Positions 1 through 55,311 of a stretch of DNA of 64,000 nucleotides are shown in pieces. This DNA comes from Bilabrum cf. latius (lineage: Eukaryota): NCBI GenBank assembly GCA_965178125.1, contig OZ237736.1, forward strand, positions 372,001 through 436,000, written 5' to 3'. Position numbers and translations under genes: made by a program. The notes beneath the pieces were generated by a model. That model worked only from the letters and a program-made list of their open reading frames with translations, ran no database searches and was not told where the DNA came from. Each line of letters begins with the position of its first letter. The stretch's first letter is position 1.

Positions 1-1750
1 CTGAACTGACAGCGCCAGAGCTCCCATCCTTTGCCGCGGCAGCAGGTTCGACCACCTCCAGCCTGGCCCGGATGCGGACGCAGCCGCCCACCGGTGTAAA
101 CTTCAGAGCATTTGACACAAGATTTGCTACAACCTGCTTGATCCGCACGGGGTCGCCTCGGATGTGACCCGGGACGTCGTCGCCGATCGCCACGTCGAGA
201 GCGATGCCCCGGCTATCGGCCGTTCGCTGGAAGGTCGCAACGATGTCGTCCAGCACCTGAGGCACGTCCACTACTTCGTCCCGCAGCTTCAGCCTGCCCT
301 GCTCGATGCGCTGGGCCTCGAGCACGTCATCGAAGATGCACTGCAGCCCCTTGCATCCTTCTTGCTGGGACCGGAGCACGTCCAATGCCTCCCTGACCTC
401 CTGGCGCAGCTCACCACTGGCAACGGTATCTGCCTTGGACCCGCTAGTGCCGCTTGTCCTCCTGCCCCGGCTGTGTCGAACTGAAGAGAGCGCCTTGATT
501 CGAGTCAGGCTCGCCTCCAGCTCGGATACTGCCAGAGACACCGCCTGAAGAGGCACCCGGGCCTCGTGGAAGATGTACCTGGTGAACTGCTGGATGGTGT
601 TCAGCCTCGTGTCGGCAGCCTCTCGCTTGTACACCTGTGCTTGCGCTGCCTGCTTCGCGACGAGGTACAGGTCGCTGTGGAGAATGGCTGCAGACGTCAT
701 GTACCGAAGAATGACGACGAGGATGTCGGTGCAGAAAACGAGAATGTCGCCGATGTCCGGCCCGACTAAAATGTCGATGTAGTAGTTGATGCCAGCGACG
801 TACACGAGGATCAACACGGCTGCAGGCACGTTTACGCGAGAGCAGCAGCTGGGTGGAGGACCTTTTTCGGCTTGCTCCGAGGGCGAGGCATTGCTTTCTT
901 CATTGCCTAGGATTGAGCTGGTGGGGTCCACGAGGTACACGGCTGGGTCACCACTCCGTCGGCTGCTCGGTGTGCCACCACCGAGGTCGAAATCGAGCCA
1001 GGGGGCCAGGTAAGGGTCCATTTGAAACCGAAACATTTCACCAAACACCAGAATCGCGGAAAGCAAGACTCCGAGGCCAAAGGGTATCTAGAGCGGGCTT
1101 CCAATATACTGCGCCAGAAAGCCGGAGACTACCATCAGTACCAAGGCAATCGACATTGCGACGACTCGCCGCAGCCTGAGTCGAACGACCAACTATCCAT
1201 CGTTCGAAAGAGCAGCTGCGCTTGAAATTGCAATAATCGCCCGGTGGTGATAGCCTGGGTGTCCCAGAACCGTTATACCATACGATAAATGCAAGCTAAG
1301 GAATGCATAGGCGGATCCAACCTGCGGAAAGCTGGGTGTAACACGTGTACATTCAATGATGATTCGATATACTGGCACTGTCCATAAATACACCCAGGCG
1401 ATTCCGGTACTCACTGCTGTGTCAAACAGAAACATTGAGGCCAGGTACATCCGTGATTTGGACGTGTCCAAGAAGGCCAGGCCGCACAATGCCAGCATGC
1501 CATGCAGAAGAAACGCACTTGACAGGGCGGCGTGCATAACTCTATCTGAGAAATCGACTGGACCCGTGCAATCCTGAGACAGTACGAAGCAGGTCGTCGT
1601 GAAGCTCCAAAAGCAACAGAGCGCTGACAGTATCAGCATGGTCAGGTACAATATCCATTCATCAAAAAAATTAGACACCATACCAATGCTGGAATAGGCA
1701 CTTGCCCTATCCGTTGCGATCCGCCTTTGGGAAAGGATATATATCTTCAT
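1..1750 (-). CDS. Multi-pass membrane sensor histidine kinase (about 8 TM + HisKA + HATPase_c); 3' end runs off the window
   Basis: ORF 1193..1750 continues in frame through TAG at 1193-1195 and 1088-1090. It then reaches the H-box (RYIFHEARVPLQAV, ~550-580), DDVLEAQRIEQG and the N-box (GDPVRIKQVVANLVSNALKFTP, ~90-160). Confidence 0.85.
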
Positions 1751-1964
1751 CTTCTAATGCCGAGTCGCACAAGATGGTCGCACTGCAAAAAACCTTGTGG
1801 ACTATGATAGCAGGTGTAAAGAATCACGAATTGCTGTTACACCTGCTCTATCCGGTGACATCACAACACTTAGCTGAATTACTGGCGAATACCGTCAATA
1901 AATATTGGAAAGCGATCCGCCAAGAATATCAGATTCGGCATTTGTAACGTGAGAAAAAAAACAC

Positions 1965-4700
1965 CGGCACCGCATTCATGCGCCCAGTTGCAAAGAACGA
2001 CCTGGCCAGAGCCCCAAGGTGGACGAGTTCAGACCTATCTGCTACGCTTCGGTGCTCTCGAAGACAATCAGTCTTGTAGCAAACGCTAAGGTCGTTGAGT
2101 ACTGTGAACAGCATGGACTCTTCGGCCTCGACCAAGCTGGGTTTCGGGTTGGCAAGAACTGCTAGCAAGCTTACTGTACCGTGCTTGAGTGGGTCCGACA
2201 GCGTGGACTAGACGGCGGGGTCCTTATCTTCTTTGATGTGAAGGGTGCTTATGACAGCTGTCAGTGGAATATCATGGAAGCGATCATGAAGGCTCAGGGC
2301 TGGGGAGATCAGGCAACTGGTTTCCTTCTGTCACGACTGAAGGTCTCGGTCCGGATCAGGGACCCAGCAACTGGTAAGACATCCAGGCCAATCCAGAAGG
2401 AGGCTGGGACCCCGCAAGGAGAAGTACTCTCACCGGCGCTCTTCCTCGTCTTCATGGGGGTCCTCCTCGAGGCCATTGCGAGAGAGCGCTCAGATTTGGG
2501 ACACTCTCATGTACTACAACCGTCACCAGGATGTAGAGGTACTCCTTGGGGACAGTGCGGCTATGCAGATGACTATGTAGCGGCAGCAACGACATGGACG
2601 GAGGCCTGTCAGGTGGTCGCGGTCGTCACTGAGCTGTTCGAACTGGCCGGACTTGAGCTTGGATTTCGACCAGTGAGTCCATCAGGGCTCGCGAAGAAGA
2701 CTGCCATGATGCCGTTTGGACTTGCAGCCGACTCCTTTCCCCGTGGGTGGGACGACGATATCGCGTGTACAGCCACGGAAGTGAACCCATCATGGGTAGA
2801 ACAGACATGGACCGTTCCCCGCGCGAAGTCGTATGTGTATCTAGGGTTGCTGATATCGACGACGAGGATCCATGCCACAGCAGCAGAGCTTGGGCCCGGC
2901 TACGAAGAGAGGGACGTGATAGCCATTGACATGGTCCCCCACGTTCGGCGAAGGGTGGCAATGGCGATGCAACAAGCGTCCATCATAACCCGCGCTGCAG
3001 TTGACTGTGATTGGTCGGTTCGTCTACACTCCCAGATTCTCTATTCTGGAGCGCTCACAAGCGCGCTCTATGGCATTGGTGCTGCTGGATGCGCCACTGG
3101 CTGGGAACGCTTCCGAGGTCTGGAACAGCGGATCTCTGTGAACTACGGCGTGATCATGAATGCAGCTGTGCTGAGTGTAGTGGACCGTTTCCTGGCACGC
3201 ATGAGGTGGATGCTGGCCACTGGAATGGCTGACCGTATGCCATTTGCCGTCGAAGGACGTCGCTTGCCGAAAGTGGCGTTGGATTCTGAGGTATGGCTTG
3301 CGAGTGCTGCCGGAAGGACCGCACGGGACCTCTTTGAGCTCATGCGAGCCCCAGATAGGAGGGGTCTACCAGTGGTATCTCACTACATCCGGACTGCATA
3401 CATGTGCCAGTAGATGTCGCAGCAGGGACCTCTTAGTGCTGCGGCGTCTCTCAGGCTTCACCTTCATGACAATGGAGTATCTGTTGACAACGGAGTGACT
3501 TGGCTGGGTGAGAAGGAGCTGAATCGAGCGGTGCGCCGTTGGCACTCGTCGAAGTCTGCTTCTAGCATCAGGTCTTTCAGGAACTTGAGCCCTGGATGCC
3601 ACTCCGGTTACGTCCTGGCGAGCGCAATCAGGCAGCAGAATGCAGAACAGACAGTGTCACTGGACCAGTACCATGGTCAGGTTGATGGGGTGTTCGGCCC
3701 TGGTTCACTGCCTACCACTGCAGCACTGCAACTGCGTGGCTCCGACGGGCGATTGATCCTTCGTGTTCGTGCGGGTATTTACCCTCGTTCCTGTTCCCCT
3801 ACTCCAGAGCTGACTGACAAGGTGGCTGTGGAGATGACTCGCCGAGAGTCATCGCTGCAGTCACGTGGTCTTCAGGCAGAGTGGGTCTCCGGTGACTGGG
3901 CCAGTCGAACTTCAGAGGAGAAGGGCAAGATAAGGAAGGCATGGGCGGACCATGGCCTACGTCTTGAACCTCACCCACAACCTCTGGAGCAGGACAGGCG
4001 TGGAGTCGCTGCTGCTGAGCGAACCATTCCCAAGATGCGCCGAGCAATTGCCCGCTCTAGCGCCTCTGTTGGATTGGTACGGCTTGCGACACTGGTGGTT
4101 GATGAGCTGAGTGTAAAGATCAGAACGTTTCCGTCCTGGACTGCCTGCAGGTGGTGGACTGGGGCCTCGGTGCGAGGCTGGACTGCGAGCTCATCGGATG
4201 ACCTGTATGCTGCAATGCGAGCTCAGGATCGCAGGGGACATCGTGTGGCTCGCCCTAGAGGGCTCATGCACACTCTTGAGAGGATCTGGGCGCGTGAGAT
4301 GGCGACTTCGCTTCGCTGTGTCTTGCGTGAAAGGGAGTAGCTACGTCGTACATGGACGTCCCGCTGGTGGCGGATGGCATGTGTCGACGGTCCGGCTGTC
4401 CTTACGAGGATGGCTCGGGCTCACTCTCCTTCCCTCTGGTCCTTTGGTGGATGAGTGGCTGAGTCTCAGGGTGATCGTCTCGGTATGTGTAGCACCATGA
4501 TGTTTCGGAAATCCTCTTTGGGACGAGGGGTTCTTCTTTCTTTTGCTTTCTTTTGAGGCTTTGGCCTTTGCTCTAGGGGGGGGCTGCGGGTCTTTTGATC
4601 GCGTTGTTCTCTGAGGTCATCTTTGATGGCCCCACCTTGGGGGTGTGACAGCCATTCGTGGTTGCACATTACTTTGTGTGGTTTCTTTACCCTACAAATT
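1965..4700 (+). mobile_element. 5'-truncated non-LTR retrotransposon (LINE-like); boundaries approximate
   Basis: Starts abruptly within the RT N-terminus after an A-run at ~1954-1961. T-rich presumed 3' UTR to ~4700. No endonuclease, ORF1 or TSD recognised. Confidence 0.75.
2013..4454 (+). CDS. Non-LTR-type reverse transcriptase ORF (5'-partial; probable 1-nt frameshift near 1995)
   Basis: Motifs DEFRPI, QAGFR, FFDVKGAYDS, GTPQGEVLSPALF, YADD and YLGL. Single frame with TAG at 2163, 3411 and 4338; first TGA at 4452-4454. Confidence 0.85.
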
Positions 4701-4896
4701 ATTCTGGTATTCTGGTACCGCCGGCCGCCGGTGGTGGCACGGTGGTGCAAGTACTTGCGTCAAAGAAGGTTTCAGCGACCATTATAGCGATTGAGCCTAA
4801 CTTTGCGATAGTCATTTGTTGTATTATTATTTTCATTGCTTCTGGGGCCGTGATAGTCGTGCTTTCCAAGATTAGAAGCAATTTCCGTCGGATCGA

Positions 4897-7800
4897 ATGC
4901 GGCGAACTGCAACTGCGACCCAGATACCAAGCCAACAGTGGACCTGCACCTGCATCATTGCCTATGCGTTGTTTGTAAGTATGTGTAAGGCGTCATCAGC
5001 CCCTGTGTACAAGGATTAGCCCAGGTGTAGTTCTATAGGGGCATAGTCAACTAGTTGGTGCCGTCATTTGCTTCCGTTGGACGTGCATCTCGAGCCATGG
5101 TTCGATGAACTTCGAGTTCGGGCGCTACTCCCAACGATTAGCCCATTCTAGCAGCTTCTAGCATCCGGCTCTGCATCACCGCAAGGCACATAGTCGAGCC
5201 CCTCTGCCGGCGTCGTGTGGATGGCTGTGGACTTGCAAGGCGATTTCCGCAAGGCGAATTCGGTGTACCTGCCGGGAGCAGTTCCTGCCGACTTTGGCGA
5301 TTGGAATTTGGAAGAAATCACACACTCCTCAACCGCCCGCGCCGACATCATCATCCGCGTCGAGGTGCAAGGCAGCAGCCTGCCGGATTCCCGGCTGGCG
5401 GGCTCGATCATGCTCGCTGACGGCGGAAGCGTCCGGGCGTGGCGAGCAACCTCGAGCTCATCGGCGCCATGGAAAGAAATCACGGGGTACAATCGCCCCG
5501 TGCTGCTGGGCCGGGGGCTTCAACTCGTTGGTGAGGGCTAGGGTGACCAGAGTGAAGGGTCTTCCGTCGTGGTGAGCAGCCGCAACGCCCTTGGCAACAG
5601 CACCCGGCGGGCATTTGACGAAGCTTCAGAGGCGCTCGCGATCCGAGTGGCCATTCCAATGTCTGCTATCCATGAGCTAGACCCGTTCAAGAACTCTGGC
5701 GCCGCGAGTGCCTGGGCGGGTGCACCCGTCGTGACCAATCAGGGCACGGCGGCGCTCGAAGCCATTTAGGACCCAGCGACTGTCTCCTGCTGGTCTGGGG
5801 GCAGATTTAGTCTTACGCAGTGCGCTCTAGCTCGGGCAACAGCCGATAGACTGAAGGAAAACCATGTGTGGGAAAAAGGGTACCGCGCTGGGGTGGAGGC
5901 TGACGACCAGTACGTCTTGGAGATCGGTATGGGAGCGGGCGAAGATGCGACATGTGCGTGGCAGGCATCGGGCACGATGTTCTGCTGGGGAAGCGGCAAT
6001 GGTGGCAGGTTAGCAACCGGTAGTACAGCGAATGTGCGCGTGCCAACCGAGATCCTTGTCGCTGGCAGTGTGATCAGCGCCAGCATCGGATACGAGGACA
6101 GCGACAACAATGTGCATGGGTGCGCTGCATTGCTCGAAGGCAGCGTGCTGTGCTGGGGCTCGAACTCGTTTGGACAACTCGGCCTGGGCGACAAAGACGA
6201 CCGAGAAAGGTTGCTGCCCCAGTCCCTATCCGTCACGCAAGCCACGCAGGTGTGCGCCGGGGCGGGCTTTTCTTGTGCTGTCATTGCCAACAAGGCGCAT
6301 TGCTGGGGCAGCAAAGACGAAGACAGGAGCGGCACGGGTGGCAACGATGCTTTCAGTCCACGCCAAATAGACGGAGGCACGTCTACGAAAGTTGCGTGTG
6401 GTAAAGACTTTGGTTGCGCTATTATCGGCGGTGGTGCCAAGTGCTGGGGTAAAGGAAGCCAGACTGGCGTCGGCGACAGAACGAGTCCATCGAGTGTATC
6501 AGGACTATCAAGTGGAATCGTTGATATTTGCGCAGGGGGGGATCATGCGTGTGCCGTACGATCGAATGGCAGGGTGGTGTGTTGGGGCAGTGGAAGCAAG
6601 GGACAGCTAGGCAGGACACCATCTAGTTCATCGCCAGGCGAGGTCACTGGAATCTCGACCGCAGTTAAAGTAAGCTGTGGGGAGTTCCATACGTGCGTCG
6701 TCTTATCGGACCGTAGTGTTCGGTGCTTTGGAGACAATGGGAATGGTCAGGTAGGCAGCGGGAGCTCAGCTTCGACAGTGGGTTCGCCAGCATTGGTGGT
6801 TGGCCTGCGTTCGGGTGCCCTCGATGTAGAATGCGGCGCACGGCATACTGCAGTCATGCTAGACTCTGGCCAAATTCAAATGTTTGGATATAACGGAGGC
6901 AGCACTGGCATTCTGGCCGTGCCCTCATTATCTGAGTCCAACACAGCGCTGACCCCCTTTGGGCTTGATGACGACATTCAAAGCGGGGCCGCCCGCAAGT
7001 CCGTGGCAGTCAGGGGGCCTGCTGCCGTCGGCAGCGATCACGTGTGCGTGCACTTGGACTTGAATCCTATTGCAGTGCAGTGCTTTGGCTCAAATGATCA
7101 CGGCTAGTTGGGGGCGGGTGATCTCGTGCACGAGATCCAGGCGTGGAGGATGCCACTTGTGCAATACAGGCTGACCCTCACGTCTCCCGTAGCCTAGCTG
7201 GCAAGCGGCGGCGCACATTCGTGCGTGATGTTCTCAGATGGTGATGTGTATTGCCATGGAAGAAACAACGAAGGCTAGCTAGGAATCGGGTCGACCTCCA
7301 ATTTAGGAGTGCCAAGATCCTCAGCAATCTCGCTGCCCGAGCCTGCAGTGGCAGTTGCTGCAGGCGACGCCCACACATGCGTTCTTCTTCTCGATGGCAC
7401 TGTGCGATGTTTCGGTAGCAACGCAAACCAACGCATCGGGCTAGGCACTGGCACTGCCAGGAGCACCTCGCCCAGCTCTCAGCTGTCCATGCCGGGAGGT
7501 CAGGACGCAATTGTCATCGGCACTGGAGCCCTGCACACCTGTGTGGCACTGCACGACACCTCCATATCCTGCTTCGGCAGCAATAGCAAAGGCTAGTTGG
7601 GAGATGGCTCGACGACGTAGCGCGGGGCCGGGAGTGCGAACAAGTGGGATGGGGGCCGCGTGAGACAGATTTGCGCGGGGGACGACTTCACGTGTGCCCT
7701 GGCGAGCGGTGGTCACATGCGATGCTGGGGAGCCAAGGAGCACGTTGGCTCGAATCCGGCTGCAGACATTACCGATGCTAGCCTCGCTGCCAATGTCTCG

Positions 7801-10800
7801 CTAGCTCACGCAGGTTTCAGCTCCAAACAGGTTGCATCGATAGGCTGCGGGGCCAAGCATGCTTGCGCTGTCACTGCCCATGGTTAGCTGCTGTGCTTTG
7901 GCGATAATTCGCAGGGGCAGTTGGGCACCGGAGACTCGACAAACAGGCCGGACTCGAGCACTGTAGCGCCGGTGCCGGTGGACTCTTTGGGATCAAGAGT
8001 TGTGCGGGTCTACTGCGGCGGGGACCGGACATGCGTGCTGCTGCAGAGCGGGGCTTTCAAGTGCTTCGGCAAACAAACGTCTTGGAAGATTGGGCATGCT
8101 TTATCCACATCAAGAACGCCAGACCAGGCAGCCGAGGTCATGTTCGGCCACAAGAAGAAGAGGGAGTGCGCCGGTGGCACGGACTGCATGTCACCGGGCT
8201 CCGCGATGCTGCAGCCCTACACCATCAACTACGATGAGACTGAAAGTTCCGAGGCGATCCTCTCGCGCTCACTCCCCAATCCAAGGACATGGTCTGCCAA
8301 TGGTTACATGTTTCCCGGCGAGGTAGACCCGCTGCTGAACGAGAGGGAGGCAGTCGGTGCCCTGTTGAGCGGGGGCTCGGTTGAGGTGCTGAGTGGAGAT
8401 GTCGTGGTTTTTGCTCCCCCTGAAACTACTCTTGATGCCCCTGCTTTTCTCAACGACACCGCTGTCGTATTTGGTAGTGCTGTCCGGAATTCGATCCTTC
8501 CGGAAGGCGGCTCAACCCTGACCATCGCACGTAATTGGGCGGCAATAGAACAGATGCAGCTGGTAGAATAGGGCAATGTGGATGTAACAGTGAGCGGCAA
8601 GCCTTGCACGAACGTGTAGACGGGAAATTGGAAGAGCATTTAGTGCAAGTCTCCTGCCGGGGACGGTCTCGGTCACGAGGTGCTCGTGTGGATTTCAACG
8701 CGCGCGCCGGGTTTGCTTCCTAGCGTGATGAGGGTTGGCTCCATCGACTACACCATGCCACTTATATCCCAAGTCACTCCAAGTGGTGGCCTGCTCCCGC
8801 GGATTAGCTCTGCTGGCACTGGATCGACGATTCAAATCATTGGCTCTGGTTTTGGCAACCCCGGAGCTTTGGCACAGGCACCAACCGTGCTGATTGGACC
8901 TTTGGAGGTGCTTTGCGACAGCATCGTTCATGTTTCCGACATCTAGTTGAGCTGCAGGATGCCGGCTGTTGCAGGCACCAACTTGCCTTTAGTGGTGAAA
9001 GTGCGCGACTCGTGGAAGAGCCCAGCCGTGAATGTGTCCACCGGAATGGCTCGAATAACTGCAATCGACCCCGCTCAGGTGCTTCCAGCGGCACCAGGAA
9101 CATACACGTACAACTTCACGATCAGCGGCACGGCTTTCAGCAAGGACCTCCTGTCCAGTATATCGGTTGGCGGAGAAGAGTGCCCAATCACCACGGTTGT
9201 GTCAGACAGCGAGATTCGATGCGATAACGTCGAGGCACCCAGGTCATGGCAATCGAACGACGTGGTTGCGACGTATGGTGGCAAGCAATTGAAAGCAAGG
9301 GGTGCGTTAAGAGCCGTAGCAGCTCCCACTGTGACATCGGCCGTGACGACGAGCGGGGTGCCTGTGGCCGGCGGCGTGCAGGTGCGTCTGGTGGGCGACG
9401 GGCTGGGCGTGTCTGCGTCTGACATAGCGTCTGTGACGTGGGCTGGTCGGTCGGTGGCATCGTCGGGGTGGGAGTGGGTGAGCACGCAGGAGGTGCGCGT
9501 GATGGTGCCGGCTCGCGTGGACAAGAGCCCGAGCGGGGACGCGGCTGCAGTGGTGGTGAGCACACGCGGGGGTCTGTCTTCGCCAGCGTACAACGTGTCG
9601 TACGACTCGATCCGTCTGGAGGTGGTGGCGCCAGTGCAGCCGCTTCCGGGGTCGGGTGTGTACGAGGAGATGTTTGAGGTGGGTGGCAGCGGGCTTCGGT
9701 CTGACACGTTGCTGGGCGGGTGGGTGGGCGGGAGTCGTTGCGGGAGCGTGAGCGTGGTTGATTCGTCTGCTTTGGGTCTTGGATCTGTGTCGGGTCCGTA
9801 TGTGCGATGCAGCGGTGTGCGGTCTCCATCGTCTTGGTCTGGTCGTGACGTGGTGCTGTCGTATGGACTGGTGGGGAATGTGACTCTTCGGGACGCGATC
9901 CGTCCGTTGAATGCTCCCACTGTGACATCGGCCGTGACGACGAGCGGGGTGCCTGTGGCCGGCGGGGTGCAGGTGCGTCTGGTGGGCGACGGGCTGGGCG
10001 TGTCTGCGTCTGACATAGCGTCTGTGACGTGGGCTGGTCGGTCGGTGGCATCGTCGGGGTGGGAGTGGGTGAGCACGCAGGAGGTGCGCGTGATGGTGCC
10101 GGCTCGCGTGGACAAGAGCCCGAGCGGGGACGCGGCTGCAGTGGTGGTGAGCACGCGCGGGGGTCTGTCTTCGCCAGCGTACAACGTGTCGTACGACTCG
10201 ATCCGTCTGGAGGTGGTGGCGCCAGTGCAGCCGCTTCCGGGGTCGGGTGTGTACGAGGAGACGTTTGAGGTGGGCGGCAGCGGGCTTCGGTCTGACACGT
10301 TGCTGGGCGGGTGGGTGGGCGGGAGTCGTTGCGGGAGCGTGAGCGTGGTTGATTCGTCTGCTTTGGGTCTTGGATCTGTGTCGGGTCCGTATGTGCGATG
10401 CAGCGGTGTGCGGTCTCCATCGTCTTGGTCTGGTCGTGACGTGGTGCTGTCGTATGGACTGGTGGGGAACGTGACTCTGCGGGACGCGATCCGTCCGTTG
10501 AATGCTCCCACTGTGACATCGGCCGTGACGACGAGCGGGGTGCCTGTGGCCGGCGGGGTGCAGGTGCGTCTGGTGGGCGACGGGCTGGGCGTGTCTGCGT
10601 CTGACATAGCATCTGTGACGTGGGCTGGTCGGTCGGTGGCATCGTCGGGGTGGGAGTGGGTGAGCACGCAGGAGGTGCGCGTGATGGTGCCGGCTCGCGT
10701 GGACAAGAGCCCGAGCGGGGACACGGCTGCAGTGGTGGTGAGCACGCGCGGGGGTCTGTCTTCGCCAGCGTACAACGTGTCGTACGACTCGATCCGTCTG

Positions 10801-13800
10801 GAGGTGGTGGCGCCAGTGCAGCCGCTTCCGGGGTCGGGTGTGTACGAGGAGATGTTTGAGGTGGGTGGCAGCGGGCTTCGGTCTGACACGTTGCTGGGCG
10901 GGTGGGTGGGCGGGAGTCGTTGCGGGAGCGTGAGCGTGGTTGATTCGTCTGCTTTGGGTCTTGGATCTGTGTCGGGTCCGTATGTGCGGTGCAGCGGTGT
11001 GCGGTCTCCATCGTCTTGGTCTGGTCGTGACGTGGTGCTGTCGTATGGACTGGTGGGGAACGTGACTCTGCGGGACGCGATCCGTCCGTTGAATGCTCCC
11101 ACTGTGACATCGGCCGTGACGACGAGCGGGGTGCCTGTGGCCGGCGGGGTGCAGGTGCGTCTGGTGGGCGACGGGCTGGGCGTGTCTGCGTCTGACATAG
11201 CATCTGTGACGTGGGCTGGTCGGTCGGTGGCATCGTCGGGGTGGGAGTGGGTGAGCACGCAGGAGGTGCGCGTGATGGTGCCGGCTCGCGTGGACAAGAG
11301 CCCGAGCGGGGACGCGGCTGCAGTGGTGGTGAGCACGCGCGGGGGTCTGTCTTCGCCAGCGTACAACGTGTCGTACGACTCGATCCGTCTGGAGGTGGTG
11401 GCGCCAGTGCAGCCGCTTCCGGGGTCGGGTGTGTACGAGGAGACGTTTGAGGTGGGTGGCAGCGGGCTTCGGTCTGACACGTTGCTGGGCGGGTGGGTGG
11501 GCGGGAGTCGTTGCGGGAGCGTGAGCGTGGTTGATTCGTCTGCTTTGGGTCTTGGATCTGTGTCGGGTCCGTATGTGCGGTGCAGCGGTGTGCGGTCTCC
11601 ATCGTCTTGGTCTGGTCGTGACGTGGTGCTGTCGTATGGACTGGTGGGGAATGTGACTCTTCGGGACGCGATCAGACCCATGAGCAGACCTACGATCTCG
11701 TCGGTAGTGTCTGCGACGTTCCCAGCGAAAGGAGGAGTTATCATTCGAATTATTGGAGATGGCTTCGGACAGTCTGCGTCTGACATTGCGGCAGTGTCAG
11801 TGGATGGCGTAGAAACTGCCTCCTGGAGCTGGATCAATACTGCAGAGGTGAATACAGTGCTTCCAGCGAGTTCAAGAAGGACTGCAGTCCTTGCAGTGCA
11901 AACCAGAACCGGTCTGTCAGCGACGTTCGAGCTGAGATATGACCTACCATCGGTTGCCAGCACTCAACCGGGCTACATCTTGTTTGGTCAAGCTGTTTCG
12001 AATGCAAACCCTATTCTCGTATGCGGAGACAACCATGCTCCAGTGGAGCAGGATGCAGAGGTATTCGGTGGAGCTAGAGTCACTGTGACAATCGCTGGTA
12101 GAGAGTGCCAGCGATCTGTGCCTGTAAACAGTAGCTGCTCTCAGTGCGTCGAGCTGCGGCAGGAGCTTGCCGATTGGTCGAAACCGCGTGTAGTACAGGT
12201 TGACATCGAAGATCGAGAGTCACCAGAGGTCAAAGTCATTGAGACGTACGGAGCGCCGCAGCTCCTTGGACTTGAGTTTGATTCATTTGGAGTCAATCAG
12301 GACGTTGTTATGTTTGCAAACAATTTAGGTGAGCAGCCAAGCGACGTGTTGGGCATCGTGCTGCAAACGGTTGAGGAGGCAACTGGCGACTCACTTCCCG
12401 TGGACGCTCAGGATGTCGTCCGGCTGAGCGACATTGTTGGTGATGCTTCCTTCGATGAGCCCAGTTTCTTTGCTGGTGCTGTGACTTCCATGCAAGGTGG
12501 CAAAGTGGAGCTCTACGGCGGTGTGCAGCTGGGCGAAGGCACGGTGTCTTTCGCGGTGCCAGAGGGACTGTACTTGTTAAACGCCAGCTAGCGCCACGCT
12601 TCGGAATAGATAAATGGCCCGTCACCGGTGGGGTATCTCCGAATATGCACCCGGGCACTCGTTTGTACGCCTGCTCGGACAGTGGCAGCTGCAACGGCTC
12701 TCACCGAGCCACCTGTTCTTGTACCATGGCAGGTGATTGCCAGGCGGCCAATCGGGGACCCGACGCAGGTTGAAGTTGTTTGGACGTATCCGTCCCCGGA
12801 CGATGAAGCCAGGCTGCTTGCATCTTTTGGTTCTTTGAGCCAGCATGCACCTGCGACCGAGTTTCAATTGGTGGTGTCGCCTGTGAAGGGGACGTAGAGT
12901 GCTCAATCGACTCCACTCGACGCCGGGGGCGAAGAGCAGGTATTCACTGTGCAGGCGCGCAGGGCACTGCTGGGCACTGCGCCGATTGGTGAGGGTGCGA
13001 GGAGGCTGCAGCAGTCCTTAATCAATGGCACCGACGACTTGGACCTGTCACTCGACATGCTCGCTGGCACAGGCTCGTACAGAGTATCGGGCACTATATC
13101 TGCGGTAAAGGCAGGTGACATTGTGAACGGTTCAGCTCCGTCTAGCGTGGCCATTTATCGTCATGTTGTCACCACGAGGCACGTCCAGCCGGTTGTGGTC
13201 GCTGTGGGTGCGCAGGACAGCACTTCCGGCAAGGCTGCGCCAGTCGCCCGAGTAGACAACGAGGTCCGTGCCTCTTGCACTGCAGATCAATTCTTCGCGT
13301 CAAAAGAGGTCAACGCAACCGAGAGGGTGTGCAGGAGCTGCCCATCCACGGTTGCACCGTGCGGCGGCTTGGAAGCAGACGAAGTGCTTGCCGTGCCCGG
13401 CATGTGGCGGGTGCCGTGGAGCAGGCAGCAGTACCTCCCCTTCGCGAGGTGTCCTAGACCTGAGCTCTGCAGGGGTGTCGAGCAGCAGGCGGTGCAAGTG
13501 CTGGGTAGGCCGCAAGTGCCACAGGCAGAGGAAGACGCTATCGGAGTTGACGCGCTGCAGTCCATGTTCGATGCCGTTGTTGACACTTCGGGTCCTCTGA
13601 ACCTGTCGTTGGTGTCGACTGAGAGAGAGCTTGAAGGCTGCGCTGGCGACCACGCCGGTGTGCTGTGCCTGTCATGCGTCAGGGGCAAGTTTTTAAGCGC
13701 TGGGGGGGACTGCAGGGAGTGTGATCCTGGCAAGGCCGCCGGCCAGGTGATCGGAGCAGCGATCCTGGCCATGATGCTGACTGCGTGCATGTTCCTGCTG

Positions 13801-16002
13801 TCGCACCGGGACGCCATGAGCTTTTCAAGGGACTCCGAGGCCTTCCGATCGAAGGACTCCTCGGCGATGGGAATCTTGAGGGTGGTGCTGGGGCACGTGC
13901 AGGTGATTTCCATCTCCAGTGCGATCCGGCTGGAGTGGCCCACCGGGTTCGTAAGGCTGCACGGGTTCTCCAATGCAGGCACCACTGGGGGAGTAGACCT
14001 GGTCTCTCCTGACTGCGCACTGACCGGCAACGTGGATAGGGATGCTAACCTGGAGACTGGCATCGACCTTGGGGACAGCCCGGTCTTCAGTCGGGTCATA
14101 CTGGCCGCGTTGCTTCCTCTGTGTCTCCTCGGATGGGCGGCGCTAGCGTGCTACTTTGCGCCACCGCAGCTCTTGGACATTGCTGGGGGTGCAGTGAAGC
14201 TGACGAGCGCACCAAAATCGGACGCCACCGCTCTGCAATCGTAGGTAAAGTCGCTGCGAGCCAGCCAACGAAACCTCTTGTCTGGAATCAACCCACTGTC
14301 GCGAAAACCTGGGCTGCTTGCGGATGGGAGCACTGGCAGCAAGTTACCAGTTGCAGCGAAAAGCCAAAGCGAACTCGCTGCCAACCAGACCCACACGGCC
14401 AATCCCGTCGCTAGCTTGCTGCAATCCTCGAGCTCAAGCTCCAGGTCGCAGCAAAGCGGTGCCTCTGGATAGGCGGTAGCAGGACCGGATTTTTCGTTCG
14501 CGAGCAAGGTTCGAACGGGCGGCAGAACCCCATCTGAAGCCGCTGCAGCCGTCAAGCCCAAGGTCAAGGCCCGCGATCGCCTGTTTCTCGGCAACACGGC
14601 CACTTTCCTGCCAAGGCTTAAGGACAGGGTCATACTATGCGTTACGGTGATCGCAACGGTGCTGCACGCGTTCGTAACATCCCAGGCGATGAAGCTGCTG
14701 ACCTGCTAGCCGGTCGGTCCTGACGTCATAGAAGAGGCTTCGGCAGCAGCAAGCTAGGCTGATGGGAATGAAACCGCAGTCACATCAGACGCCGACAACA
14801 GTGGGTACAGCGCGTTTTAGCTCCGGCTCGTGGGCGACCTCGACGTAAACTGCGAAGCAACCGCGGGCCAGCGATTCGGGCTCGCCATCCCTGTCCTGCT
14901 GATCCTATCGCTGGGCGTGCCAGCTCTGCTCGGGTCGGTGGTGTGCTACCGCCGTGGCCAGTCTCCCACTACCAAGTACCAGATGAGCTACCTGGTTGCA
15001 AACTACGCAGGGCATGCGCAGTACTGGGAGGCCGTTGCGATGGTGAGGAAAGGGTCGCTGGCGGTTCTAACCGCGCTGCTGGAGCCAGTCGGGGTTGCAA
15101 TGCAGGTGAGTGTGACACTGTTGATAGTTGTTCTCAACCTGCTGGCAGTGACAGCACTGGCACCGCTTCGGACCTAGCTGGAGAACAGGTTAGAACAGGC
15201 ATCGGGCGGCGTCTTGGTGTTCACGTTTATCATCCTCTTGGCTCTTCCTGATGATTTCGCCGTGTCAAGCGCTGCTCAGGAGGCAGCATTCGAGCAGCTC
15301 GGCGGGCAAGATAGACTGCGTGAGAGAACGGGTGAGTGGGCGCTCGCCATCAACGCGCTGTTCTTTGCGGCTGCTGGGCTCGCCCTGATATACGTCTCGC
15401 TGCCTGGCAAGTGGAAGCTGTATCTGCAGTCCTGTGCCGGTGGGCCCTTGTGCGCTGCATTGCTCCCGTGCTTTGCTCTAGGCAGAGATCATGATGACCA
15501 TCTAGGCATTGCCAAGGGTGGAATTTCGGGCTGGAGCGCAAGTGGCAGCCGCAACGGGCGGCACGCCGCGGCCAAGCTGGCTAGGAGGGTCAGCAGCCAG
15601 CCGCAGCTGCACCTACCAGGGCCAGCTGCAGACGTCGATTAGAAGTCAAGCGTGGGCCCCCCGCGCGCTGGTCTTGCCAGTGCAAAGGGTCTACCCGGTG
15701 CCAGAAGTGCTGGAGCCAAGCAGCCTAGCCTCAAGCCAGCGGGGCGGCGAGACCTGGATTTGAGCTAGCTGGGATCCACGGGGACCGGTGGAAGTTCTCC
15801 TCGGTCTGGCCCAGGCATGCCCGACGAGCCCTCGCGGGAAGTGGACAGCACTTCGGCTGGCCGGTCGAGCAGACCAGCGCAGGGGCCGAAGCGGGTGCGG
15901 GCTCCCCACAGGCAAGCCAAGAGCGCGGGCGCAAGGCGCTTGCCGCCAGGCAAACGACCGGATCGGCCAAAGCCTGGGAAGCTGGCGCCAGAAGAGGTGT
16001 AA
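4897..16002 (+). CDS. ~3,700-aa receptor-like protein: signal peptide, RCC1/BLIP-II repeats, IPT/TIG repeats, Cys-rich region, multi-pass (~7) TM C-terminus
   Basis: Track ORFs 5215, 5569, 5866, 7309, 7660, 7921, 8680, 8947, 12628, 12949, 14278, 14830, 15214 and 15817 all lie in one frame. They are separated only by TAG (27 counted); the first TAA is at 16000. Motifs CWGSNSFGQLG, HTC, PTVTS..GG..V.L.G and YWEAVAMVRK. The start ATG is inferred. Confidence 0.85.
9322..11673 (+). repeat. 591-bp tandem repeat, ~4 near-identical units (197 aa each, about two IPT/TIG-like domains)
   Basis: Unit starts at 9322, 9913, 10504 and 11095. Only scattered substitutions (gag atg/gag acg, gac gcg/gac acg). 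Confidence 0.97.
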
Positions 16003-16429
16003 AACGACGCTGTTCTCTGCCGCCCCATGCTATCGGCATGCGAGGTTGTGGATTGCCTCTGCGACTCACGCGACCCGGAGGATGCAGGCAGGCCAGCGTC
16101 GGTACGAGCACCAACAATAAGATAGAGCAACAATGAGGTGGTTATTTTGTACGTTTCGTGGATGATCTTATCTTGCTGGGATCTAACTCACACGAGTGTA
16201 TACCGCGGCACACCCCGCAGCGGGTCGATTTTCAATCGTCTCGGCCTCGGTGAGCCTAAATGCGGAATCTAAGTCACGGTAGCGGCATTATCTCTCATCC
16301 TGGCCTAGCTCGGTCGTCCTCCTATCCTGTCGGCTGTCCTGTTCCGCCTGCACACTTCTGCTATCCGCCGAGGTGAAGCTGCCAGCTTTCGAGATGCGTC
16401 CTTTTGCCTTGGTGACTCCTTTCTGATTA

Positions 16430-17669
16430 TCATGCTCCCTTCGTCTCTCCTCCTCCACTTGCCTGTCGTGTTCCAGCTGCTCCACCCGTCTCTCCAGCTC
16501 GCCTACCGTCTGCTCGCTGTGGTCCCTGGCCCTGCACGCCATGATCACGCTTCCTTCCATAAAAAAAAGAAATAGACCCCAGCAGCGACGCAGCTCCTCG
16601 TGGGGAGTGCGCACCACCCGATGCATCCACCTACTCTGGACACCTGGCGCTGTTGGGAGCAGAACTAGCGCACCTTACAAGCGACCCGCGAGTATGGCGT
16701 CTATCGTCCCCCACAAATCTGGTGGTCGACCACTCGGAAGCGGCGCACACGGAGGGAGTCTGAACGACTGACGATCCGGCTACACTAGATGCCAATGAGC
16801 CAGGCCCAAGGAACATGCTTTCATAGAATTGATCACTGTCGTTGATCCGACGACTCCCACTCGCAGGTTTAGGGCTCCAGATCGTGTGCCGTCGAGGCGT
16901 CGCACGGCGTTCCACGCTGGAGCTCGAGGGATCCTCCTGCCACCAGACGATCTCTTCGGCGCAATCTTGCATTATCCTCCCTCGTTGATCCTGTTTGGTA
17001 TCAGCATCGCCTGATGGAGCCGCTGCCTTGCATTCCGTGCCATCCTTGTCGCAGTCAGGGTCTGGTCCCCCGGCAGGCGGCTTGGATGGATTGGTGCCGT
17101 GAAGCTGCCGAGCACCAGCCGATGCTCCCTGCTCGTCATGCTTGTGCTAATTCTCTTCGATTTTCGCATCGTGCGCAGTACCAGCTGTGATATCCCGCAG
17201 CGGGTGTCCCGGTGGCAGGTACTGGCTGAGCTCGTGAAGCACCACGGGCTGGTCGTCCAATTCGTCCAGCCGGCTGACGAGCGCCCTAACTCTGCTGGTG
17301 ACTGTACTCGATACAGCGCCAGTGTCGTTGCTGTTAGACCGGAGGCCTCGTTTGGATGGCGAGCGGTGCTGTGCTGCAGAACCGACAGCACCAGAAACTG
17401 CAGGGCATTGTAAGCTGTGTTGGATCCTACAAAAACATCCACGTCAAGCCTGCCTGAATCAATACGATGGTAACAGACGGTAGAGTATCAGACACTCAAC
17501 TCATATTTGATACTGGACTAATTTGCACACTGTTCTCACCAAGAACTGCTGGAATCAACGAGCCACCAGACTATGTAACTCTTTGCTTGGCCATACTATT
17601 TGTCGTCGCTGTGGCTTCAAACACATCATCGTCATTTCTTTTATCTTGCAAATGATTCCAACTATCCAT
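16430..17669 (-). CDS. Hypothetical low-complexity protein (putative intron 17398-17539; C-terminus uncertain near the homopolymer at 16561)
   Basis: Frame from 17397 to 16430 is interrupted only by TAG. GTGAGA donor and CCCTGCAG acceptor are phase-compatible. No homology recognised. Confidence 0.3.
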
Positions 17670-20328: not shown

Positions 20329-23300
20329 TCAGGCCTATTCCATGTCTTCCATGCTTCCAAACGAAGCGCCAGTCGACACCTTCACGATGAGAGGCACGGA
20401 CAGCCGAACCGACCCTCCCAGCAAGGCCTTGCCCCCTCTCACCTGAGAAGGGACTGAAACTGCCCTCAGGCCGGCCCCAATTCCACTAGTCTCACCTCTA
20501 TCACCAGATGATCCTGAGGGAGATCCCCTTCCGGCCCCAGGGAGTGCCCCCAGAGGAGGCACCGCCTGTCGACCGACTGACCCTGCACCGCCGAGAACCG
20601 AGTCGTCCGTCGAAGCGAGACTCAGCGCCCCACCCGATCCCGAATCCCCAGAACCCCCCACGCCCACCCCACGCCAAGGCGAATGCTCCAGGCACCCAAG
20701 GCCAGGCCGCTCCGCTAGCCCGCATCGCACCAAGGGGCCGACAGCCACCTGGCCCATGGCAGGTCTGCACAGGCCGGCCATCGCAGCCGGTACTAGCTTC
20801 GACATGCACCGCGTCAGGTACGCTGCCACTCGAGCCCTGCTCTCCGCATCGCCGGGGCACTCCAGCACCAGCTCATCGTGCACCTGCAGCAGCACCTGCG
20901 ACCGGGCCAGCGCCTCCATTGTTCCCTGGTCCACCCCGCCAAGAAGGAACCCGTCGATGGGCTGTCTCCTCCCAGTGCCAATGCCCCCATCTAGCCCCCC
21001 CAAGCTGGAACCGAGGGGTGCCCCCAGCACGCGCTCCGCCGCCGCATCCAGCGCCCGCTCCACCAGGATCATGGCCACTTTGATCAAGTCTGCTGCACTC
21101 CCCTGGATCACCGTGTTGACCGCCCTCCTCTCTGCCTCTGCCCTCAGTCCCCTGTCGCTCGACGCGCTCGTGTTTGCGAGGTACCTCCGCCGGTTGGCCA
21201 GCGTGATCACGAAACCGTGAGCCCTCGCAAACTGCCTGGCAGACTCCATGAACCTCTGGATCCCGGGAAAGTGCTTGAACAGGCGCTTCCTCACGTCCCT
21301 GACCGCAGCTGCGGACGTGCCCAGCTTCCTAGCGGCGTCCTCCACACCATTGCCGTAGATCATCCCGAGCGTGACCGTCTTGGCCATGCCTCGCTCAGCG
21401 GCCGTCACGTCGTTGGCGTGCTTGCCGAAGACCATGCCCGCCACGGCTGCGTAGATGTCAGTCCCTCGGCTCGCGATGCCTGCCTGGCTGAGCGATGGCA
21501 TGCCTATGCCAGTGCTGCCCTGGCTGGCACCAGGCGAGGGCGCGCTTTCAAACAGCCGTAGGAGGTTCCTGTCTTGCGCCACGTGGGCCAGGATCCGCAT
21601 TTCAATCTGCCCGTAATCCGCTGCGAGCAGCGCACGGTCGGGGCCGCTGGCGACCAGCGCTGCACGGAACGATCCGAGCTGCTCCACCCCGTCATCTTCC
21701 TGCTCATCTCCATCCCCATCGGTTGCTTGAGCGGCAGATTGCTGCCCTAGACCGGCACTTGCCCCGCCTGCCGCGTATCTCTGCACCGCGGTGCTTTGCT
21801 TAGGGAGATTCTGCAGGTTTGGGTTGCGGCTGGACAGCCGCCCAGTGCCGGTGCACACCTGTGGCATTTGCGCGTGCAGTGTGTGGAGGCCGGGGTGGAT
21901 GCTAGCGGCAGCATTGGTCCAGTAAGTTTGTGTGCCTACCGGGTGTACAGACCCGATCGAAGCCGCAGCATTGGTCCTGCTACTGCTACTGCTACTGCTA
22001 CTGCTACTGCTACTGCTACTGCTACTGCTACTGCTGCTGCTGCTGCTGCTGCTGCTTGACGCTGATGGTGCCGGTGGCGATGCAGCTGTACCCTGTGGCG
22101 CCCTCTGCTGGCGAGCAGGCAGTAGGACCCGATCGGCAGGCTTGACGGCCTTGCCTCCAAATTGCATGAACGTGTTGATCGACTTGGTGACCTTGCGCCA
22201 GCGCAGGATGATGCCCGGCAGGGGGTGCTGCGACTGCAGCTGCTGCAGCACTTCTTCCCTGGTCGAGCGATGTATCTTGGTCTTTGGACCGCTCTCCTTC
22301 CTCGCCCGCTGCCTCTCGTCATGATGAAGTCCCAGCTCATCGAACAGAATGCCCGCCACGTCCTTGTTGCTGGACACCTAGAACGACCGTCCCAGGCACC
22401 TGTGAGCGTCCTGCTCCAGCTGCTTCTGCCTCTTGCTGAGGTGCTTGTCGTACGCATCAGTGATGGCAGGCAGGAAGGGGACACCGGCGGCTTCAACGCG
22501 AGCCAGCAACGGTGTTAGTGCCATCTCTTGGAAGTAATACACGCCCAGCTGTCCCCGCATGGCGAGCTGTCGTTCCAGGAGGCAGTAGAGATGAGCTGTC
22601 CGGCAGAGGGTGCCCCACAGAGACTGCTTGGACTGCGGCTGCGCTGCGCCGCTGCTGGCAGCGGGACTATGATGCAGGTCCAAGGGGAGGTAGAATGACT
22701 CGGGGCAGGGGCTAGCTTGAGCCATTTGCCATAGGACTGACGCAGGAAGTCCCTGCACGGCCGGGGTCCTGACAGCTGCGGTGACCTTTGTCACTTCCTG
22801 CACAGCTTTCACGACGGCATCCGTGTGAACAGTGTACGCGGCGGTGGTGACATCTGCAATGCACTGCACTGCACTGGCAGCGGCAGGGATCACCTGCATG
22901 AGTGCGTGTAGGTTCGTGGCCCCGCTGTTGCACACCTTTGGCACGCCCGGGATCTGCAGAATCCGCGCCAGCACGGCCCACCTCCACCGAGCTGGGACCG
23001 CCGCGGCCGGATTCACAGATGCAGAGCGCTGGAGCGCACCAGCCTTGCTGTTGTCCCCACGTAGACAAGAACATACCCAATCGTCGAGTACTTGTGCCGC
23101 CGCGGCATCACCGACAAGCGTGCCTGCACCTTGCTTGGACTGCTCTGAACTGCAGTCGAAGTCGGGCTGCATGGGAAGGAGGAAGAACCTGGCGTGCCTG
23201 ATCCATTGAATGACAGCATGCGCCTTGTCATTGGCAGTGTGCTACCAATCGCGGGGCATCGCGGCGATTGCGACGTGGGTCACCCCGTCAGGGGAGGTGG

Positions 23301-24741
23301 GACGGCCGAGCACGCGGAACACGAGCATCGAGCAGGTGCCCAAGCAGCGCAGCGTCTCCTGCAACGAAACCGATCCCTTCTAGCCTGGAGCTAGAACCAC
23401 ATCAAGCGGGTTAACACCATCGGCACTAGTGCCGCTGCCCTCGTCTGCATCGTTGGCACATGCCCGGCTCCAAGAAGACAGGTCAATTAGTTCGAAGCGA
23501 TCGTGGACAGCTGTGCTCGCCCTCGTCTGCTTCACTGCCTGTGCCCATCCGCTCGCTGCAAATCCGGCAGTTGGAGGCGTGTGAATGCGTCTCTAAAGCT
23601 GCTATAGTTCCTTTGGCGGCGGTGCAGACGCGCTGGGGGATGTCCCGCCGAGTCGCCTAGCGCCTGCTCGCCCAAGCGAAGAGGCTCTTGCTCGCTTTTT
23701 CGGCCTGGTGACCTCACCCGGCGCGCTCGTTGCCTGCGTAGTCGAAGCGCCAGCTATTTCCTATTCAATGAAGGAAGCGTAACTCGAATTTCTCCGAGAG
23801 CGAGAACTCTCCTCGTGGGCTCCTTGCGCTTGGCTGCTGCTAGTAGTATTCGACTGGTGCACCGCCGATCGCTGGACTCGCTTGCGACCAGCCAGGCGCC
23901 GGTCGCTGTTGGTGATTTTAACAACCTCGGACGGAACCAGCTATCCGTTAGCTTGCTCTTCCATTGGGTGACTGGCGTTCAGACCTCTTTGATTGGAAGG
24001 CTGTGGCAGCAGCTTCAGCCTTGACTGCTTTGCACTCGCTGCGGCTCTCCTCCCAGCCGACCCTGCATCTCCGTGTACATCGCCAGATTCCATCGCTTGT
24101 GCGGCTAGCGCGTGTTCTCTTCGAAATCTAGAGGCAAGGTCTGCCCCGCCTGGTGCAGAGCTGGTCACCAGCTCAGCTTGAGCAAGTGCTCGACTGCTCC
24201 TTCCGCCATCCTGCTTTGAGCTCAACAATTTCCGCATCGCGTCTGACGATGAGTCGTTAACTGTACTTGGATTGCCGGGGTGTACATTCGAGCCTGCACC
24301 TGTCGCATCACCGATCTTTCGCAGCTGCCATATTGCTCCGACGTTGCTCAGTCTACTTTCTGCGGACGGCAAGCCTTCTTGGCGACCATCCCGCTAATTA
24401 CTTGACTCAATTCGTCCTCTTGAATTCATTGCAGATTCAATATTCGCCGCAACTGGCGCCTTGGCCTCTAGTCTTTGCGAGCTTGGATAGGCACTGAGCC
24501 TTGGACCTGCAACTTGCTCCATGGTAGCCGCCATCGCATTAGGCTACGAAAACCAGTGTTCACGAGGAACTTTAGACCTGTCCTCTGGCTCCGTTTCGTA
24601 GGGAATTGGCGGCTCAACAGGTCTGAATTGGTCTTGCGAAAGGATTACTTCAAGGGCGAACGGGTCAGACTGCTGCACTCGCTCGTACTCGTGCCGAGCA
24701 AGCGGGCGAAGCTGTGGGTCTCTCAACAATACGTACTCCAT
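20329..24741 (-). CDS. A-family DNA polymerase (Pol nu/theta-like polymerase domain, no helicase), ~1,470 aa
   Basis: Motifs TGRLSSRNPNLQNLPK, ADYGQIEMRILAH (A), RGMAKTVTLGMIYG (B), AERRAVNTVIQGSAADL and QVHDELV (C). ORFs 24544, 23941, 22378 and 20335 share a frame joined by TAG. Ends GAA TAG GCC TGA. Confidence 0.88.
21977..22056. repeat. (CTGCTA)n/(CTG)n microsatellite encoding poly-Ser in the polymerase
   Basis: Seen directly in the sequence. Confidence 0.95.
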
Positions 24742-36967: not shown

Positions 36968-37101
36968 GCGAGCGCCTGCCTAGTTCCGGTATTTGTTTTG
37001 AGGTCGTGATGCAGAGTTTGCCACATCAGTTTCGTTGATGGCGAGCCAGCGATACGTTTCTATGATGCAGAAGCACCGCCATCGCTCGATAATCCAACCA
37101 T

Positions 37102-40100: not shown

Positions 40101-40158
40101 GCATGGCACCAAAAAGGGCCACACCTGCTGCAGCCACTGCTGCCATTCCAGTTCGCAT
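37102..40158 (-). CDS. HYOU1: ER Hsp70-like chaperone Grp170/HYOU1
   Basis: Signal peptide containing TAG at 40096 and 40081. Motifs VLGIDFGSE, QSKRKT and LNGDEAMALG. Further TAG at 38707 and 38035. Ends in the ER-retrieval-like SEEL followed by TGA. Confidence 0.92.
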
Positions 40159-40292
40159 ACTCAGGCCCAAAACACTGTGATCCCACGTGTCAGATTTGCT
40201 TTCGCCCAATCAGCACCTTACTAATTTGATCCGAAATTCGGAGCCAAATACACTTTCCGTCCAATCCAGAAGTAGCGCTTTGTGGCGCTGAA

Positions 40293-43200: not shown

Positions 43201-43433
43201 TGCGGGTGCTTCCCCTGGGGTCCTTCCCCGATGTGGGGTCACACGGTACCAAGCAGCACGGAGTGACAGTGGGAGGGTTTTCGTACGACCCGTTGACGGG
43301 GCGGGTGGGCCTCGTCAGCTGCATCGACAACCTGCTCAAGGGGGCCGCCACGCAGGCCGTACAGAACCTCAACCTGGCCCTCTACGGGAGGTAGGGCGAG
43401 TTTGCTGGGGGATTTCGGGGCCTTTTCTTTTGA
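40293..43433 (+). CDS. ARG5,6: Bifunctional acetylglutamate kinase / N-acetyl-gamma-glutamyl-phosphate reductase (Arg5,6-type) with mitochondrial-like presequence
   Basis: Kinase motifs LVKAGG, VIVHGGGPQ and NVNADVAA. Reductase motifs VALIGARGFTG, SNPGCYATG, GVSGYSGAG and IDNLLKGAATQA. TAG at 42201, 42399 and 43392; TGA at 43431-43433. Confidence 0.9.
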
Positions 43434-55229: not shown

Positions 55230-55238
55230 AAAAGAAAA
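55230..55238 (-). terminator. RNA polymerase III terminator (TTTTCTTTT)
   Basis: T-runs immediately 3' of the tRNA. Confidence 0.75.
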
Positions 55239-55311
55239 TATCAGTGGTGGGCTTCGATCCCACTACCTCTCGCGTGTGAAGCGAGCGCTCTACCAACTGA
55301 GCTACACTGAC
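55239..55311 (-). tRNA. tRNA-Val(CAC)
   Basis: 73-nt cloverleaf. Acceptor stem GTCAGTG/CACTGAT, anticodon arm CTCGC-TTCACAC-GCGAG, T-arm GTGGG-ATCGAAG-CCCAC. Confidence 0.95.

Follow-up and report, generated by a model that had tools for sequence, protein, structure and literature searches.

In the 64,000-nucleotide stretch of Bilabrum cf. latius DNA analyzed in this work (assembly GCA_965178125.1, contig OZ237736.1, positions 372,001 to 436,000 of the forward strand), referred to here as the window, TAG is most likely an ordinary sense codon for glutamine (Gln), with TGA as a stop codon and TAA probably still a stop, i.e., the UAG-only arrangement of translation table 15. The argument begins with a giant gene on the plus strand (5941 to 16002) that combines RCC1 blades, IPT/TIG repeats, and a membrane-spanning tail, and in which three TAG codons occupy the place of a Gln that is conserved across the RCC1 family. 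It extends to the remainder of the window, in which TAG is evidently read through in frame in many genes, TGA evidently terminates genes, and TAA is avoided in coding frames. The code change is of a rare but already known kind, and the RCC1 finding is one supporting argument for it, not new biology.

The RCC1-like domain of the giant gene (5983 to 8142, plus strand) comprises about 14 blades, as delimited by the Pfam families RCC1, RCC1_2, and WD40_RLD together with a list of the blades. When the segment 5851-8700 was translated with TAG as X, its whole-protein scores exceeded the Pfam curated cut-offs (PF00415, PF13540, and PF25390): RCC1 matched in 6 stretches (3.5e-64; 213.6 bits, cut-off 21.7), RCC1_2 in 8 stretches (5.7e-67; 220.4 bits, cut-off 22), and WD40_RLD at 1.1e-96 (324.7 bits, cut-off 150). 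The family is characterized by blades of about 50 residues with the motif [WF]G-x4-G-Q-L-G; here, the blades are spaced by 47 to 67 residues and G-?-[LV]-G is present in seven blades. The nearest solved structures are those of UVR8 (E = 5.7e-30), RPGR, HERC1/2, and RCC1. These proteins share the blade motif, whereas in the giant protein a single chain combines the approximately 14 blades with IPT/TIG repeats and a tail that passes through the membrane several times.

The first-pass annotation had drawn attention to six codons of this domain, three for Gln and three TAG, as alternative spellings of one motif residue. Direct reading of the sequence found all six in place, with the flanking codons quoted for them. 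They share one frame (every start position leaves a remainder of 1 when divided by 3) and occupy the same column, namely, that of the question mark in [WFH]-G-x4-G-?-L-G. The Gln codons, all on the plus strand as are the TAGs, are CAA at 6175-6177 (gga CAA ctc; blade 2, CWGSNSFG-Q-LG), CAG at 6604-6606 (gga CAG cta; blade 5, CWGSGSKG-Q-LG), and CAG at 7918-7920 (ggg CAG ttg; blade 13, CFGDNSQG-Q-LG). These three were given correctly, and a fourth was overlooked, CAG at 6748-6750 within GNGQVG (blade 6, CFGDNGNG-Q-VG). TAG occupies the column at 7105-7107 (ggc TAG ttg; blade 8, CFGSNDHG-TAG-LG), 7276-7278 (ggc TAG cta; blade 9, CHGRNNEG-TAG-LG), and 7594-7596 (ggc TAG ttg; blade 11, CFGSNSKG-TAG-LG), and at these three sites TAG would stand in synonymously for the CAG or CAA of the G-Q-L-G Gln. 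Across all blades, the column holds Gln four times, TAG three times, Arg three times, and Lys once, three blades being degenerate. The probability that at least three of the six TAGs in the 720 codons hit the seven motif columns by chance is 1.1e-5. The other three TAGs lie at variable RCC1 columns: 7195-7197 at profile position 38 (Ala.27, Ser.14, Gln.11), 7618-7620 at position 22 (Asn.16, Asp.14, Ser.12, Gln.09), and 7885-7887 at position 3 (Thr.23, Ser.12, Ala.10).

As the Pfam scan gives no residue alignment, the column was checked on a repeat profile derived from homologues. To this end, the RCC1 region, with Gln put at the TAG sites, was compared with 1.84 billion representative proteins, and the 150 best matches were used. 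In these homologues, 3364 instances of [WFYH]G-x4-G-?-L-G were found, and the residue at the column is Gln in 2548 (75.7%), followed by glutamate (Glu) in 244 (7.3%), Arg in 242 (7.2%), Ala in 86 (2.6%), and Lys in 59 (1.8%). For the three motif TAGs, this translates into a likelihood ratio of about 1115:1 for Gln over Glu and of 1162:1 for Gln over Arg. The profile itself was made from 800 of the 3112 homologue blade segments and has the consensus ...CWGsNssGQLGdG...; the TAGs at 7105, 7276, and 7594 all fall on its position 14, the consensus of which is Gln. When the six TAGs of the domain are taken together, the summed log-likelihood under the profile is -9.4 for Gln, -15.4 for Glu, and -15.5 for Ala. 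The assignment of TAG to Gln in the first-pass annotation is borne out by this consensus, but its statement that the gene suffices without any database was too strong: the blades of the gene themselves carry Gln in four, Arg in three, and Lys in one case, and Gln is singled out at the column only because the family-wide frequencies are added. In alignments to solved structures, the motif TAGs are mostly opposite Gln, and the TAG at 7105 is opposite the Gln of RPGR and UVR8 blades. Some details speak less clearly for Gln. The printed alignments pair the TAG at 7594 with Arg in a GRLG blade of UVR8; for the TAG at 7276, Gln is the usual partner, but certain blades of RPGR and UVR8 have Lys, Arg, or Asn there. 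The placement of Gln at the TAGs of the query is a possible source of slight bias in the proteins retrieved, not in their columns.

In-frame TAG is a property of the window as a whole. Fifteen open reading frames (ORFs) with approximately 14,900 codons contain 87 TAG, 1 TAA, and no TGA, and TAG is present in every long gene. Among these ORFs are those for DNA polymerase A, ARG5,6, WDR75, an Hsp70-family protein, and two kinases. TAG occurs in frame in conserved and otherwise intact genes, here as well as in the relative described below. The number of TAGs per gene was compared with the counts of each of the 20 amino acids. The Poisson log-likelihood was best for Gln (-33.7), compared with -36.7 for gene length, -51.0 for Glu, and -52.7 for Lys. 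The Hsp70-like gene illustrates this, as it encodes 136 Glu and has 4 TAG, which fits the window-wide TAG:Gln ratio of about 0.15. By the residues neighboring TAG, Gln is about 10 nats ahead of Glu and of Lys; Tyr and Phe, however, equal Gln in this comparison, which is too weak to be used.

TAA is scarce in coding frames. The ORFs of the window contain 131 CAA and 426 CAG; if TAA and TAG shared this preference (CAA 131/557), 26.8 TAA would be expected alongside the 87 TAG, and one was seen (P = 7e-11). Seven ORFs that end in TGA under either code carry 35 TAG and no TAA, for which 10.2 TAA are expected. Given this near-absence from coding frames, the code looks UAG-only for Gln. TAA also seems to close the giant gene (16000) and WDR75 (55003). 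In the giant gene, the first in-frame TAA, that at 16000, probably forms its end. The 281 codons beyond it accumulate 2 TAA and 5 TAG, and their third-position GC is 0.61, compared with 0.68 to 0.71 in 13216-15615.

An arrangement of the table 6 type, in which both TAG and TAA encode Gln and TAA is rare merely because the genome is GC-rich, is therefore unlikely. CAA is not rare, the seven TGA-bounded ORFs lack TAA, TAA and TAG accumulate past 16000, and no TAA occurs in about 2500 orthologous codons of the relative; TAA was thus not found to serve as a Gln codon beside TAG. In favor of the table 6 type, reading TAA as sense extends a few ORFs, and one TAA does not sit well with the notion that TAA is only a stop, namely, that at 56541-56543 in the ORF 55878-57479 (plus strand). 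The frame is strongly coding there, with a third-position GC of 0.81 before this TAA, 0.95 in the 39 codons after it, and 0.86 further on. The ORF has no TAG, and a homologue search over a limited length range found no match to it at E <= 0.001. The TAA at 56541 could be a case of read-through, of rare sense use, of a fresh nonsense allele, or of an assembly error. A 21-base GT..AG intron around it was also considered and is unlikely given the ordinary 411-base intron of WDR75.

A relative of the window is available in the form of an environmental (metagenome) contig, L001, of which positions 1-8715 correspond to approximately 35700-43400 of the window. The order and orientation of a kinase gene (plus), an Hsp70-like gene (minus), and an ARG5,6 gene (plus) are kept, the protein identities to the window orthologs are, in ascending order, 65%, 73%, and 78%, and the GC content is 0.583, compared with 0.595 in the window. 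The three genes of L001 contain 13 in-frame TAG and no TAA in approximately 2500 orthologous codons. TGA serves as a stop in both organisms: the two Hsp70-like orthologs end in ...EEL followed by TGA, and the kinase orthologs also stop at TGA. To evaluate the residues that face TAG, candidate residues were weighed by the substitution frequencies between these same orthologs, in which Gln is paired with Gln at a rate of 0.54. Over the 17 TAG positions, Gln scored best (-45.2, compared with -50.6 for Glu), and this was also the case for the 7 positions with conserved flanks (-15.4, compared with -22.3 for Glu). Two of the pairings with Gln are located in the highly conserved kinase.

The individual pairs are less favorable to Gln than these sums, and several further observations have to be set against it. 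Gln is opposite TAG in just 4 of the 17 ortholog pairs, and no TAG position is shared between the window and L001 (0/17). The six aligned TAGs of the window are opposite TAC, ACT, TCG, AAG, AAC, and CTG (Tyr, Thr, Ser, Lys, Asn, and Leu), with no Gln among them (0/6). The 11 aligned TAGs of L001 are opposite GAG in five, CAG in two, CAA in two, and GCA in two cases. For the TAGs of L001 alone, Gln is only narrowly ahead (-21.0, compared with -22.4 for Glu); two of the TAG/GAG pairings have 9 to 10 of 10 identical flanking residues, and one kinase column with TAG in L001 and CAA in the window is Glu or Asp in five printed solved chains of the CaMK/CDPK type. The three TAGs of the ARG5,6 gene fall in an insertion or at variable, unconserved columns and are uninformative. 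Lastly, the first-pass annotation had held that a TAG column with a non-Gln consensus would speak against Gln, and one such column was found outside the RCC1 gene, in DNA polymerase A: the TAG at 22378-22380 (residue 788, within an F-N-x-x-S motif) corresponds to Asn in 109 and to Gln in 1 of 120 Pol I homologues. These 120 homologues are distant, at about 30% identity, the search having matched mostly bacterial Pol I. When this column is added to the RCC1 motif in an arithmetic on column frequencies, the lead of Gln is still wide, and the remaining evidence outweighs the exception. The correspondence of TAG with Gln in homologues holds at the three motif TAGs, the polymerase Asn column and 13 of the 17 ortholog pairs being exceptions. 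We read the ortholog pairs as TAG being located mostly at weakly constrained sites with fast turnover, with Gln the best single reading and Glu the real rival.

Glu is indeed the main rival among the residues that TAG as a sense codon might specify. The blades would then read G-E-L-G, and there is precedent for such a code, since UAR encodes Glu in peritrich ciliates and Blastocrithidia. Glu is the second most common residue at the RCC1 motif column and reaches up to 32% in some homologues, and to this are added the five GAG among the 11 codons opposite the TAGs of L001, two of them in near-identical contexts, as well as the kinase column of the distant CaMK/CDPK chains. We nevertheless regard Glu as decidedly improbable. 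The motif ratio favors Gln, and in 146 homologues the share of motifs with Glu never comes to the 43% that the giant gene would require (maximum, 0.32). The TAG counts per gene fit Glu far less well than Gln, as the many Glu and few TAG of the Hsp70-like gene make plain. Four TAGs of L001 are opposite CAA or CAG, although Glu positions face Gln in only 2.6% of cases, and several of the GAG pairings come from low-complexity, acidic tails that can be aligned only arbitrarily.

It is very improbable that TAG stands for another residue (Arg, Lys, Asn, Leu, or Tyr) or is decoded ambiguously by near-cognate tRNAs. Such a reading could draw on the three Arg and one Lys that fill the motif column elsewhere in the giant gene, on the Asn of the polymerase column, on a TAG within a Lys-rich run of an LYAR-type gene, and on the six different residues that face the window TAGs in L001. 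In the homologues, however, Arg and Lys make up 7.2% and 1.8% of the motif column, the Arg and Lys blades of the giant gene depart from G-?-L-G in further ways, and the ortholog and per-gene fits place these residues well below Gln.

That the RCC1 gene is a pseudogene or its TAGs sequence errors, so that CAG to TAG changes merely mark former Gln codons, is scarcely credible. The motif argument alone cannot tell a code change from a dead gene, because CAG to TAG is a single transition and decay too predicts TAG at Gln columns; the pseudogene is excluded by the wider data outside the motif. The frame of the giant gene from 4816 to 16845 (4009 codons) contains 33 TAG, 2 TAA (both beyond 16000), and no TGA, against 55.7 TGA expected (P = 6e-25), and its approximately 3700 codons before 16000 show neither a TAA (11.1 expected from the CAA share) nor a frameshift. 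In-frame TAG is also present in the housekeeping genes of the window and in L001. In addition, contigs of three public runs, one spanning the whole RCC1 gene and two covering parts of it, are identical to the window over the gene, and no TAG/CAG variants were found among them. With the pseudogene excluded in this way, the RCC1 motif provides sound support for TAG as Gln.

The mechanism of such codes, as described in passages of PMC5304391, involves a tRNA-Gln with the anticodon CUA and a change in eRF1. By analogy, a tRNA-Gln(CUA), one mutation away from CUG, would read TAG, whereas the anticodon UUA would read TAA as well, and eRF1 would have lost the recognition of UAG. Neither a tRNA-Gln(CUA) gene nor an eRF1 gene is located within the 64-kb window. 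The only RNA gene detected there, Rfam scan included, encodes a tRNA-Val with the anticodon CAC (55238-55312, minus strand).

Several systems with comparable codes are known. According to parts of PMC11687900 and PMC5304391, UAG alone was reassigned to Gln in Iotanema spirale (Fornicata), in Protocruzia tuzeti, and in the phyllopharyngean ciliates Hartmannula sinica and Trochilia petrani. PMC11687900 designates this variant translation table 15 and names Iotanema, Protocruzia, and two phyllopharyngean ciliate lineages for Gln; cases in which UAG changed its meaning without UAA are few. The window shares with these systems a UAG with sense, best read as Gln, the avoidance of UAA in coding frames, and UGA as a stop. 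It is unlike the UAG-only ciliates in being long multi-gene DNA of 59.5% GC with a 411-base GT-AG intron and a retroelement. It also seems to differ from mitochondrion-lacking anaerobes such as a fornicate in that the N-terminal extension of its ARG5,6 protein, read by eye, appears to resemble a mitochondrial presequence. The reassignment of both UAA and UAG to Gln (NCBI table 6) is described in the part of PMC11687900 used here for many ciliates, Ulvophyceae, Hexamita, Streblomastix, and Amoeboaphelidium; these share with the window the reassignment of a stop codon to Gln and TGA as a stop, the difference being that TAA is not used for Gln here. By its GC content, its chromosomal setting with many genes, and its fused ARG5,6 enzyme, the window resembles no member of either group. 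Code 15, with TAG as Gln, is also reported for crAss-like and other gut phages (PMC9523058). These phages recode late genes inside bacteria with the standard code, whereas the window belongs to a cellular eukaryotic genome with housekeeping genes; TAG is Gln in both.

No report of a GC-rich non-ciliate with UAG alone reassigned to Gln was found in the main text of open-access papers and preprints. The window and L001 may stem from a GC-rich, non-ciliate lineage of aerobic protists, so far unreported, in which UAG alone encodes Gln and UAA is a stop, a tentative proposal that we consider possible rather than probable. If true, this would be a further independent case in which the meanings of UAG and UAA have separated, and one with fast turnover of TAG, as none of the 17 positions is shared, and perhaps with occasional read-through of UAA as at 56541. 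Such cases bear on the joint evolution of release-factor specificity and suppressor tRNAs, and with a non-ciliate, GC-rich case for which a relative is also sequenced, one could follow across two genomes how a newly captured codon turns over. In practical terms, an annotation under the standard code would fragment most long genes, with the ARG5,6, polymerase, and 10-kb RCC1/TIG genes all broken at TAG, and the assembly must therefore be translated with TAG as Gln.

The giant gene is predicted to be a large, intact surface-protein gene with a product of approximately 3,400 to 3,700 residues. Its frame is open from 4816 and free of TGA until 16843, and TAG occurs in it at a rate of 0.0082, which is near the 0.0076 of the other five frames. 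Upstream of the RCC1 blades, the segment 4816-5800 (plus strand) carries 7 TAG within approximately 320 codons, shows little excess of third-position GC, and includes a signal-peptide-like start, MRRTATATQ... The dense TAG in this segment leaves the true start, or first exon, of the gene uncertain. Downstream of the blades, the alignment of the TIG-domain TAGs at 8569-8944 to the 150 homologues gave only 11 blocks, with one or two residues per column, and was uninformative. Further on, 9322-11673 (plus strand) consists of tandem copies of a 591-base TIG-containing (IPT/TIG-type) unit that are about 99% identical and have no TAG inside. The strand opposite these copies is open for 962 codons, a by-product of composition (GC skew 0.29).

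The genes shared with L001 are adjacent to each other. A CaMK-like protein kinase is encoded at 35786-36967 (plus strand), and its CAA at 36014 and CAG at 36689 are opposite TAG codons of L001. It is followed by the Hsp70-family (Grp170-like) gene at 37102-40209 (minus strand), the 4 in-frame TAG of which precede the end ...SEEL and TGA, and by the gene for a fused acetylglutamate kinase/reductase of the ARG5,6 type at 40293-43433 (plus strand), which has 3 in-frame TAG and ends in TGA. The best named homologue of the latter is from Cafeteria roenbergensis, with 46% identity over 43% of the query. The family A DNA polymerase gene (20329-24741, minus strand) has 10 in-frame TAG.

A reverse-transcriptase element (Pfam RVT_1; 2019-4454, plus strand) contains 3 in-frame TAG and is multi-copy, with a depth of about 155 compared with 12.6 for the RCC1 gene. 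Of the 39 differences listed between its copies, 27 are synonymous in frame, also past the TAGs at 2163 and 3411. The frame is thus kept after TAG, because the copy differences downstream are mostly synonymous. A variant of the element of about 98% likeness is present in another run.

WDR75 is split by a 411-base GT-AG intron (gtgagc...gcag; 51799-52209, plus strand) that joins two propeller ORFs in phase 0. Since WDR75 carries this intron, the window, which is intron-poor and has a GC content of 59.5%, is evidently eukaryotic nuclear DNA. Its proteins matched only broad clusters of eukaryotic sequences in a protein atlas, and a collection of prokaryote genomes contained no relative. A TAG TAG at 51805-51810 is located inside the intron, and some of the in-frame TAGs of long ORFs may accordingly be intron sequence. 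The highest TAG density (10 in 681 codons) was observed in the ORF 46269-48884 (plus strand), which has no family match, carries an (Ala-Gly)n microsatellite-like run at about 47700-48000, and may be only partly coding. At 63497-63526 and 63701-63727 (plus strand), TAG is found within runs of CAG and CAA (..K-TAG-Q-Q-Q-H.. and ..Q-TAG-Q-Q-Q-H..). Both cases are in the ORF 62924-64000, which is unverified and has no family match, and they are only suggestive; TAG is found also in Glu-flanked and Lys-rich stretches.

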